A DNA stretch of 64,000 bases from the sequence record PZ452584.1. The stretch is one strand, 5' to 3'. This stretch comes from a phage. Under the pieces are notes generated by a model. That model saw only the letters and a program-made list of their open reading frames with translations, did no database searches and was not told where the DNA came from. The position numbers were made by a program, and so were the translations under genes. This document shows, piece after piece, positions 2,090 to 4,402 of the stretch (positions are counted from its first letter, which is position 1; each line of letters opens with the position of its first letter).

Positions 2090-2487
2090 TATAAATTCTC
2101 TTTTAAATGAAAATGCAGGACTTATTGGCATTGCCTGCGCAAGCCCTCAAGGGGAACATAGGTTTTTGGATATTTAACGACCAGGATAACCATAAACCCG
2201 TCATCATACCTTATAGCTCTTATCTGTTGCACACCGTTAGCTTAAAGGTTCCGGGTTCGATTTCTCGAGGATAAGATATATACTGATGGATATATAGGCC
2301 TTGAGGCGTACTCCCGATTGGCCATCACCTCGGGGTAGCATGCACTTGCCGCTATAAGAATAACATTCAAGAGGTACACCATAAAACTGCCGAGGTCTTA
2401 AAACTATAATGATTCGCAAATCATTAATCAGACAGTTCGATGGCTCCTCGATTTTAGCTCACACTAAGGCAGTGAATCTCCAATAAA

Positions 2488-2883: not shown

Positions 2884-3219
2884 TCACTTATAAAGACACG
2901 GAATAGCTTTATAGTGACAAGTAACAAATTTTTGTTTAATTTCTTTTGGCTGCTTAAGACCCAGAGCTACAAAAGGATGCGGAACATTTCGAATTTGACC
3001 AACTGGAAGAGAAGTCAAATCACCAACTTCGCAGAAACCTTCAGGAACATCAGGACCAACAGAGTGAACTACACACAGTTCAGGAACTTCACCTTGAACA
3101 CGTTTACCGATAATAAGTCCTGATTCTGTAACTTCTTCATCACCAGCCTGTGCGGGTTCAGAAACTAAAATAACATATTCACCGACAGCACGAATTGGTA
3201 GCTGTTGTACTTCAGACAT
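2884..3219 (-). CDS. 31: gp31 co-chaperonin (GroES-like)
   Basis: 111-aa [24 protein letters not shown]...; same length as T4 gp31; synteny 31-rIII. Confidence 0.9.
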
Positions 3220-3584: not shown

Positions 3585-3821
3585 TTATTTACCTATTACA
3601 GTTTTAATATGAGTTGTTCCACGTTCTTTAAGGGTGGAAAGTAATTTTTGGCATTTTTCTAAATCAGATTTCCAACTATATGGTCTATCAATACTAGTCC
3701 AATCAGTTTTATAATACTGCTTCCATTTAGAGAAAAAATACTTCTTATACTCTACAGCAAATGAAATGTTCTCGTTGGAATAAGAACTAATTGCAGTGAG
3801 TTGTACCAAACGAAATTTCAT
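3585..3821 (-). CDS. hypothetical protein (78 aa)
   Basis: Track ORF; stop/start abuts neighbours. Confidence 0.5.
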   Translation of the reverse strand: MKFRLVQLTAISSYSNENISFAVEYKKYFFSKWKQYYKTDWTSIDRPYSWKSDLEKCQKLLSTLKERGTTHIKTVIGK

Positions 3822-4402
3822 TATTCACCACAGAATTCGTTGATATTTTCCCAGTTTAACTTATTCAAGTTTTTCTTAGGAACATTAAACACTTCAATAC
3901 CCGCATTTCGCAGAATATCATCCCAGCCAGGTTTATTTTTATCGTATGTTTCGCAATAAACTAGCTTTTTAATACCAGATTGAGCTATCGCTTTTGCGCA
4001 ATCCGGACAAGGAGAAAGTGTTACATACATAGTAGCACCTTCAATAGAAGAACCATTTCGTGCAGCAAACAAAATTGCATTTAGTTCAGCATGAATTTCA
4101 TTTTTAGACGACCATTCAGAGTGAGCGCTACGGTGTTCTTTCGCCAAGACAAAGCGATCGGTTGAACCAAATGATACGCATTCAGGCTTATGACCTTGAA
4201 TGATAGTGTGTTTAGGCTTATTCAACAACCAACCTTGCTCAGCAGCATAATCACAACAGTTCACACCCCCTGCGGGTGAACCATTATACCCAGTAGAAAT
4301 AATACGTCCATTCTTTTCAATTACTGCTCCTACCTTCCAGGAGCAACATTTTGATTCCTGTGATACTAAATATGCAATTTGAAGTACTGTACTCGCTTTC
4401 AT
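3821..4402 (-). CDS. cd: dCMP deaminase
   Basis: 193-aa ORF with cytidine/dCMP deaminase zinc motifs (HAELNAI...SPCPDCAKAI); same length as T4 Cd. Confidence 0.9.
   Translation of the reverse strand: MKASTVLQIAYLVSQESKCCSWKVGAVIEKNGRIISTGYNGSPAGGVNCCDYAAEQGWLLNKPKHTIIQGHKPECVSFGSTDRFVLAKEHRSAHSEWSSKNEIHAELNAILFAARNGSSIEGATMYVTLSPCPDCAKAIAQSGIKKLVYCETYDKNKPGWDDILRNAGIEVFNVPKKNLNKLNWENINEFCGE

Follow-up and report, generated by a model that had tools for sequence, protein, structure and literature searches.

The rIII-30.9 intergenic region

The DNA analyzed in this study is a stretch of 64,000 nucleotides (nt) of phage DNA from record PZ452584.1 (the window; all coordinates are window positions), which belongs to a Tequatrovirus (T4-like) genome. 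It was found that the gap between its rIII and 30.9 genes holds a folded RNA of roughly 150 bases encoded on the minus strand, an RNA domain inside the 3′ untranslated region (UTR) of rIII. The segment 1800-2900 matches a partial record of Escherichia phage LZ9 with 100% identity and many T4-like coliphages with 98-99% identity, and the minus strand carries every gene of the region (cd, gene 31, rIII, and 30.9). The RNA domain and its two constant neighbors are as follows.

2488-2736, minus: rIII, lysis inhibition accessory protein (PHROG 1457, E=5e-44; also by the LZ9 and T4 annotations), the constant upstream neighbor of the RNA domain
2210-2358, minus: the conserved RNA domain in full (149 nt), with P1 as its closing stem, as defined by a consensus structure and a covariance model
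1913-2089, minus: 30.9, encoding a very basic protein of 58 amino acids (aa), annotated in LZ9 and T4, the constant downstream neighbor of the RNA domain

A sequence-only reading of this DNA had described a non-coding gap of 356 base pairs (bp) at 2132-2487. There is indeed no gene in it, but the gap was drawn too small; 30.9 starts with the ATG at 2089 in the LZ9 and T4 annotations, and the intergenic space is 2090-2487 (398 bp). The start at 2132 had been chosen because a 72-aa open reading frame (ORF), 1913-2131, was taken as the next gene. The enrichment in G+C (GC) that had been noticed was confirmed: the GC content of 2132-2487 is 43.3%, a level attained in only 1.7% of 356-nt windows, the window as a whole has 35.6%, and the core of the gap (2210-2359) reaches 46.7%. 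The inverted repeat that had been singled out is present at 2408-2425, one base less than the 2408-2426 first given. It is not the key feature of the gap; it sits outside 2210-2358, at the tip of a separate long hairpin (module A, see below).

Does the gap contain a gene? That no credible ORF exists, as had been claimed, holds true: the frames of 2237-2419 (TTG start) and 2242-2382 (ATG start) are hit by stops or frameshifts in most other genera, and the frame of the longest ORFs of the window is open through the whole core in only a few lineages. The option of a decayed gene, or of a very small protein-coding gene, has a next to negligible likelihood. An ORF of 46-60 aa spans the core in the window phage, and some depositors annotate short hypothetical coding sequences (CDSs) there. 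Against this, the frame is broken in the Serratia-type copies (Ser4S, L056, L058), L065, EnC07, EcS1, and Yen9-01, an upstream start in frame is missing in most genera, and no start-containing open frame is conserved across relatives. The substitutions are paired across stems; they are compensatory and not codon-patterned. The sequence-only reading had named an intact protein-coding gene in relatives, or the lack of both transcript and conservation, as findings that would speak against it. In the comparative alignment, relatives keep 2210-2358 conserved, without an intact gene there.

All but a few records leave the domain unannotated, and automatic annotation puts spurious small CDSs on it. 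Deposited genomes call short hypothetical CDSs on either strand across the domain (2415-2558 in locus L003, 649-753 in L013, and many other records). These calls are very likely annotation artefacts.

Fold of the RNA domain

The fold was derived from an alignment of 24 non-identical gene-sense copies from about 11 genera of T4-like phages. The covariance model R1 matches 2200-2370 on the minus strand with 192 bits (E=1e-50), and this match is the single copy within the 64-kb window. Stem P1 opens into a four-way junction (P1, P2, P3, and P4) without unpaired linker nucleotides, and the centroid fold of the window sequence alone yields the same helices. The parts are listed here.

2351-2358, minus: 5′ strand of P1, CUUAUAGC, pairing with 2210-2217; three inner variable pairs covary (AU/GC/UA, AU/UA/CG)
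2210-2217, minus: 3′ strand of P1, GCUAUAAG, the partner of 2351-2358
2297-2350, minus: P2 arm, double changes in 5 of its 10 stem pairs
2350-2348 with 2299-2297, minus: base of P2, GGC/GCC
2347-2340 and 2305-2300, minus: asymmetric internal loop of P2, AAGUGCAU and CUCAAG, bases invariant or nearly so
2339-2330 with 2317-2306, minus: stems P2a and P2b
2329-2318, minus: L2, the 12-nt loop of P2
2322-2327, minus: kissing strand UGAUGG in L2, Watson-Crick complementary to 2284-2289 in 24/24 copies
2277-2296, minus: P3 hairpin, UAUAUAU/GUAUAUA, 7 pairs, 3 with double changes, 99.4% paired
2289-2284, minus: P3 loop CCAUCA, the second kissing strand
2218-2276, minus: P4 arm, enclosing an inner three-way junction (P5, P6, and a joiner)
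2276-2270 and 2224-2218, minus: P4 stem, UCUUAUC/GAUAAGA, 7 pairs, 3 with double changes, 100% paired
2257-2268, minus: P5 hairpin, UCGA-GAAA-UCGA, with a GNRA tetraloop at 2264-2261; 3/4 pairs covary (CG/UA/UG, CG/UA/AU)
2256-2231, minus: P6 hairpin, 5 pairs, 2 with double changes, and a conserved 15-nt loop, GAACCUUUAAGCUAA
2230-2225, minus: joiner GCAACA, invariant

The sequence and the length of P1 vary among genera with its complementarity retained, as read by eye from the alignment. About 30 unpaired nucleotides of the domain are invariant or nearly so.

Evidence for a selected RNA structure

RNAalifold on the 24 copies gave 43 pairs, of which 22 are compensatory. A small hairpin that it placed inside L2 (GGY/GCC) had 10 G·U cells and 3 mismatches and was replaced by the fully paired kissing loop. 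With the kissing helix added, the model has 46 pairs, and standard pairing is found in 98.6% of the alignment cells; the value is 90.7% in column shuffles and 28-42% when the partners are slid by 1-3 columns. Double changes occur in 23 of the 46 pairs as compared with 8.7±1.9 in the shuffles, none of which reached 23 (0/500). In a structure-blind mutual-information scan, model pairs occupy the first six ranks. The kissing helix itself consists of 6 pairs that are 100% paired across the 24 copies, 3 of them covarying, with zero one-sided changes. It exists in four versions: UGAUGG/CCAUCA, CGAUGG/CCAUCG, CUAUGG/CCAUAG, and CAAUGA/UCAUUG.

Which strand is the functional one? The gene-sense strand has 57 G·U cells as compared with 5 A·C cells, and 98.2% of the cells are paired when read in the sense direction as compared with 93.2% in the antisense direction. 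The P5 loop is GAAA in 17/24 copies and GUAA in 3/24, and it is a GNRA loop only when read on the minus strand. The G·U excess and the GNRA loop therefore indicate that the element is an RNA running in the same direction as rIII and 30.9. It is almost certain that the minus strand of 2210-2358 encodes an RNA whose structure is real and under selection. The structured RNA that the sequence-only reading had offered among its options is thus strongly supported by covariation; it had been based on GC content and short inverted repeats, of which the one cited lies outside the 149-nt domain, and no strand had been named.

Two further tertiary features were considered. A second pseudoknot between AAGUGCAU and GUGUGCAACA was rejected by eye, since its variable positions change without compensation. 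The likeness of the P2 internal loop to a K-turn, a loop-E motif, or an 11-nt receptor is partial only, and no such identity is claimed.

Could the fold serve merely as a 3′ stabilizer, a compact structure that blocks 3′-to-5′ exonucleases and extends the life of the rIII mRNA? The location in the rIII 3′ UTR, directly past the stop codon in several genera, and the compact, GC-enriched fold would suit this role. A simple hairpin would suffice for it, however, and module A is already there. A need for stability alone does not account for the GNRA loop, the covarying kissing loop, and the roughly 30 invariant unpaired nucleotides, which imply that a precise three-dimensional shape has been selected. 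A passive stabilizer is thus very unlikely.

Distribution and exchange at a fixed slot

The gap was compared with 50,697 phage records by BLAST. T4 holds only about 200 of the 356 gap bases, and the middle piece (about 2217-2351) is absent from it. The same middle piece is found with 91-96% identity in T4-like phages of Klebsiella, Enterobacter, Citrobacter, and Raoultella, in which the flanks have ceased to match. In total, the RNA domain was found in 411 phage records (412 places), one copy per genome, and the hosts of the carriers include Escherichia, Klebsiella, Enterobacter, Citrobacter, Serratia, Yersinia, and others. In every case looked at, the domain is placed between rIII and a 30.9 homologue. 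The core is 85-93% identical to that of the window at the nucleotide level, as compared with 65-76% for the rIII gene and 65-77% for the RIII protein. In IMG/VR, 23 of 46 rIII loci carry the domain, and all of the 23 carriers have 30.9 downstream; many of the IMG/VR rIII loci have 30.9 without the RNA domain.

The frequency of the domain was also counted by host. The RNA is present in 161 Klebsiella and 27 Enterobacter records, to be compared with 157 and 22 records matching a 1.1-kb locus query, which means essentially all of them. It is present in 131 of 560 Escherichia records (about a quarter) and 27 of 78 Shigella records (about a third). This host-linked distribution may be a hint at function.

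The slot of the core (2208-2363) is bounded by the conserved sequences CTCTTGAATGT and TATGATGACG. When the window was compared with T4 (L005) and with the loci L032, L034, L037-L039, L043, L045, and L047, three alleles were found among close relatives. The first is the 149-nt core, as in the window phage, JS98, and VR26. The second is an unrelated insert of about 50 nt, TACTATCACGCGTCAGAAAAAGGTTATCTGTCTAAGYCGTGGTTGG, in T6-type phages and in several Dhakavirus- and Mosigvirus-like contigs. The third is the empty slot of T4. The ~50-nt insert shares a short ACGC-TCA with the core, which may be due to chance or may be a remnant. A covariance-model search with filters off gave no cryptic copy in the rIII loci without the domain; the best hit had E=0.12 and an unconvincing alignment. 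A metagenome scan added 14 further copies, all close to known ones, leaving the diversity unchanged.

Outside phages, 5,426 E. coli genomes gave zero matches to the core, and 72,556 plasmids gave only two 30-nt matches with E of about 0.4, which were taken as chance. In a 17-mer scan of a bacterial genome collection, the matches listed comprised only chance seeds, none extending past the seed. Within these collections, nothing points to a host origin of the core. With T4 lacking it and T6-type phages having another insert in its place, the RNA domain behaves as an exchangeable cassette at a fixed slot.

Presence, absence, and replacement at a motif-flanked slot resemble the modular shuffling of T4-type phages, in which close relatives gain, lose, or swap non-coding inserts such as the PeSL cassettes (PMC2839356, PMC4122927). 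In the T4 group, PeSLs have an early promoter consensus, TTTACW-N17-TAYWAT, joined to a stem-loop (PMC4122927). The likeness raises the possibility of an element acting as DNA, namely a signal for recombination, replication, or packaging, or a shuffling cassette of the PeSL type. However, PeSLs are dispersed repeats of an early promoter and a simple stem-loop, whereas the domain is a 149-nt multi-helix RNA in single copy without a promoter consensus. No early promoter consensus was found inside 2090-2487, and the core and the neighboring modules B and C (see below) each occur once in 64 kb. The asymmetry of 57 to 5 cells and the GNRA loop, seen on the minus strand only, point to selection at the RNA level. 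A DNA-level element is extremely improbable, and the replication or packaging signal proposed by the sequence-only reading is disfavored on the same grounds.

Neighboring modules of the spacer

Besides the core, the spacer holds five modules (E, A, B, C, and D), whose order is not fixed across genera.

2451-2481, minus: module E, a hairpin right after the rIII stop codon, AUUCACUGCCUUAGUGUGAGCUAAAAU
2371-2449, minus: module A, a long irregular hairpin (minimum free energy -24.9 kcal/mol, z=-2.2) with the repeat 2408-2425 as its tip
2158-2209, minus: module B, a conserved hairpin module, GUAUGAUGACG...CGUUAAAUAUCCAAAA..., one copy in the 64-kb window
2140-2157, minus: module C, a small hairpin, GUUCCCCUUGAGGGCUUG, one intact copy in the 64-kb window
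2115-2138, minus: module D, a GC-rich hairpin, GCAGG...CCUGC, followed by AUUUUCAUUU at 2105-2114, just 5′ of the 30.9 ribosome-binding site

Module E, AUUCACUGCCUUAGUGUGAGCUAAAAU, was compared with the type I-F CRISPR repeat, GTTCACTGCCGTATAGGCAGCTAAGAAA. Aligned without gaps, the two agree at 18-19 of 28 positions; module E does not keep the Cas6f hairpin, and the likeness may be a coincidence. Module E matched no CRISPR model of Rfam, and the versions of other genera are less alike.

In module A, compensatory changes among relatives were read by eye (CCAU/AUGG in some and CCGU/ACGG in others, and an apical AAUGAUU/AAUCAUU that is AUCGAUU/AAUCGGU in L047). Module A is also present in T4 and is thus experimentally accessible.

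Module B was compared in L003, L004, L007, L009, and L013. It lies 3′ of the core in the window, Moon, EnC07, and EcS1, and T4 is grouped with the same downstream type. The Klebsiella, CIP9, and Serratia types have it 5′ of the core. A 34-aa ORF across module B (2103-2207) is not conserved. Module B was also considered as an early, middle, or late promoter or as a DnaA box, and this was rejected since the consensus is inconsistent across genera.

An intact module C lies 5′ of the core in EnC07 and EcS1. In the window, a degenerate second copy, GUACCUCUUGAAUGU, exists at about 2364-2380 on the minus strand, and imperfect direct repeats thereby bracket the core. The module C repeats could provide homology for cassette exchange.

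The leader of 30.9 was compared between the window (2105-2138) and L003-L014. Module D has a 5-bp GC stem and a 14-nt loop followed by AUUUUCAUUU; the loop exceeds the limit of the scanner, and the terminator scan made no call. The core itself has no U-tract. A hairpin and a U-rich tract were found 5′ of 30.9 in every phage examined, with the core present or not. In the genera outside the T-even phages, a UCUCC...GGAAGA hairpin follows the U-rich tract and could cover the Shine-Dalgarno sequence of 30.9. These leader hairpins suggest translational or termination control of gp30.9.

Transcription context

The remaining features of the locus are as follows.

3821-4402, minus: cd
2884-3219, minus: gene 31
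1909-1888, minus: a clean intrinsic terminator after 30.9
1858-1830, minus: an early-type promoter beyond the 30.9 terminator

In Moon, PSH1140, EnC07, and EcS1, only 7-19 nt separate the rIII stop codon from the start of the domain, and there is therefore no room for a promoter in these four phages. A promoter scan of 2090-2487 gave zero sites, including sigma-70-like ones; the closest sites lie within rIII and 3′ of 30.9. Between P30.2 and P31, the published list of T4 middle promoters is empty (PMC2988021), and early, middle, and late promoters all serve rIII (PMC9409239). The RNA would be made within the rIII-30.9 transcript and is expected at all stages of infection.

The domain might be a protein operator in cis, bound by gp30.9 (autoregulation) or by a host RNA-binding protein such as ribosomal protein S1, which would tune the expression or decay of the rIII-30.9 message. 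The 58-aa gp30.9 is extremely basic and is always encoded just 3′ of the domain, and both the spacer and P2 contain GGAG motifs (the RegB recognition sequence). RIII is reported to bind S1 and to prevent the S1-dependent activation of the RegB nuclease (PMC9409239), which also counts for such an operator. On the other hand, gp30.9 and rIII commonly occur where the RNA is absent (T4, T6, and others), and the GGAG of P2 is not conserved, being absent from the Serratia type, EcS1, and Yen9-01. The domain is too far from the 30.9 ribosome-binding site for simple steric repression. The gp30.9 protein belongs to PHROG 1427 ("unknown function"), and searches of Pfam and PDB gave zero matches for it, no known RNA-binding domain being detected. 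A cis operator is quite unlikely.

Comparison with known RNA systems

ARAGORN found zero transfer RNAs (tRNAs) in 1800-2900. The T-loop-like GGTTCGATT on the plus strand was accordingly rejected as a tRNA; its bases are the complement of the covarying P5 and P6 of the minus strand, including the GNRA hairpin. The search against Rfam that the sequence-only reading had proposed was made with version 15 (4,227 models, among them riboswitches, ribozymes, leaders, small RNAs, and CRISPR repeats). No match overlapped the core at E<=10, either in a 1.3-kb scan or in a targeted 181-nt scan, and six divergent members gave zero matches at E<=5; the domain fits no catalogued family. Elsewhere, Rfam gave only spurious matches below threshold. 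The best of the region, to Atu_C8 at 1874-1957 on the minus strand (31 bits, the threshold being 50), corresponds to the intrinsic terminator after 30.9. Matches to C/D boxes on UGAUGA were also rejected; they lie in the 3′ flank (2195-2218), merely touching the 3′ strand of P1.

Is the domain a riboswitch? The junction-type aptamers compared were the lysine riboswitch with its L2-L3 kissing loop, the purine riboswitch, and SAM-I with its four-way junction. Like these, the domain has a multi-helix junction closed by P1, in which neighboring arms are clamped by a kissing loop of about 6 bp; its longer arm has an internal loop, possibly a bend, and many junction and loop bases are invariant. Short words of the domain (UCUUAUC...GAUAAGAG, CCCGG-AACC) resemble the SAM-I consensus. 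Unlike these aptamers, it has no Rfam score in the 181-nt scan, combines a four-way junction with an inner three-way junction, has no adjacent expression platform, and stands among shuffled neighbors. A conserved, covarying, aptamer-like fold with invariant junction and loop nucleotides was found. An expression platform directly 3′ of it and mutually exclusive with P1 was not; P1 and the 30.9 start codon are 84-162 nt apart, with shuffled modules in between.

If the domain were a riboswitch-like or attenuator leader of 30.9, a ligand (a metabolite, an ion, or a signaling nucleotide) would alter read-through of module D or access to the ribosome-binding site. Such a leader would account for the aptamer-like complexity (a multi-helix junction, a loop-loop contact, a GNRA loop, and many invariant unpaired bases), for the position always 5′ of 30.9 in the same orientation, and for the GC-rich hairpin with its U-rich tract and the Shine-Dalgarno-covering hairpin that stand before 30.9. 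However, one to three unrelated hairpin modules, in an order variable among genera, intervene between P1 and the 30.9 start, and P1, usually the switching helix, is free in sequence and length, with no conserved alternative pairing seen. Module D and the Shine-Dalgarno-covering hairpin are conserved in phages without the RNA and are hence independent of it, and no Rfam riboswitch model matches. A classical riboswitch of 30.9 is disfavored because P1 varies, the flanking modules are shuffled, and the 30.9 hairpins persist without the RNA. I consider a leader of this kind rather unlikely.

The position between two cistrons would also be suitable for a new self-cleaving ribozyme splitting rIII and 30.9. 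A four-way junction with tertiary contacts between its arms recalls the hairpin and twister-sister ribozymes. No Rfam ribozyme model matches, which excludes the known classes; no conserved context for a candidate cleavage site was identified, and the domain is dispensable in close relatives. This possibility is highly improbable. Type III toxin-antitoxin systems consist of tandem antitoxin RNA repeats and a downstream ToxN/CptN-type endoribonuclease of about 170 aa. The domain does not fit this scheme; it is a single, non-repeated RNA, and the protein downstream has 58 aa and no Pfam match.

Among the RNAs of T4 itself, the biologically closest are the stable RNAs C and D (species 1 and 2), small non-tRNA RNAs of unknown function that are processed from a longer transcript (PMC3014915). 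Their location in the tRNA cluster and their sequence are different, however, and the domain, absent from T4, has no paralogue. Fremin, Bhatt and Kyrpides 2023 (PMC10690425) reported 10,006 viral motifs and highlighted those upstream of gp20 and gp32. Like these, the domain is a covarying intergenic phage motif found by comparative genomics, and it may or may not be included in their catalogue. A literature search on the locus, LZ9, gp30.9, and structured RNAs of Tevenvirinae, made outside that list of 10,006 motifs, found no description of the fold or the context of the domain. In summary, the domain is regarded as a new RNA family of a known general kind, a complex-folded non-coding RNA; it is a member of no named family and, as far as was found, is undescribed.

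A possible mechanism

In the mechanism that I favor, the 149-nt domain folds independently, its long, bent P2 arm being tied to the short P3 by the 6-bp loop-loop helix. It would be transcribed without a promoter of its own, within the rIII-30.9 message. Endonucleases would then cut in its single-stranded, A/U-rich flanks, and exonucleases would trim the ends back to P1, to yield a stable RNA of about 150 nt. The released RNA may bind a specific partner, either a phage or host protein or a small ligand, through its tertiary structure, and possible roles are those of a decoy or sequestering RNA or of the RNA part of a small ribonucleoprotein. The domain is seen as an autonomous accessory module rather than a switch for one gene because the neighboring modules are reordered, P1 varies, and relatives carry the domain, another insert, or nothing. 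The reading as a whole, an autonomous folded RNA from the rIII-30.9 transcript that is predicted to act in trans by binding a partner, is held with slightly less than even confidence.

Several points weigh against this reading. Both the release of a stable RNA and its action in trans are deduced only from architecture. The fixed position 5′ of 30.9 and the hairpin and U-tract there suit a cis-regulatory role equally. T4, the experimental model, does not have the domain. The 24-38 sequences share phylogeny, which makes the independent compensatory events fewer than the cell counts suggest. Finally, the public collections were searched with seeded patterns and BLAST, an indirect substitute for a full Infernal covariance-model scan.

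Significance for T4-like phages

A review of 2010 stated that no riboswitch or trans-acting regulatory RNA from T4 had been functionally characterized and that the genomes of its relatives might suggest candidates (PMC3014915). The 149-nt RNA is such a candidate with an unusually clear signal, and it is more conserved than the adjacent protein genes. It is possible, although doubtful, that it is the founding member of a new functional RNA class of T4-like phages, either a new riboswitch or ribozyme fold or a mimic or sequesterer directed against the host or its defenses, maintained as an exchangeable accessory cassette that almost all T4-like phages of Klebsiella and Enterobacter have and for which coliphages are polymorphic. 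Few viruses have been studied as well as T4 and its relatives, and many of the more than 400 carriers are therapy candidates against Klebsiella, Enterobacter, and E. coli. The natural absence of the RNA in T4 and its presence in close relatives offer ready isogenic comparisons, by which its function is directly testable.

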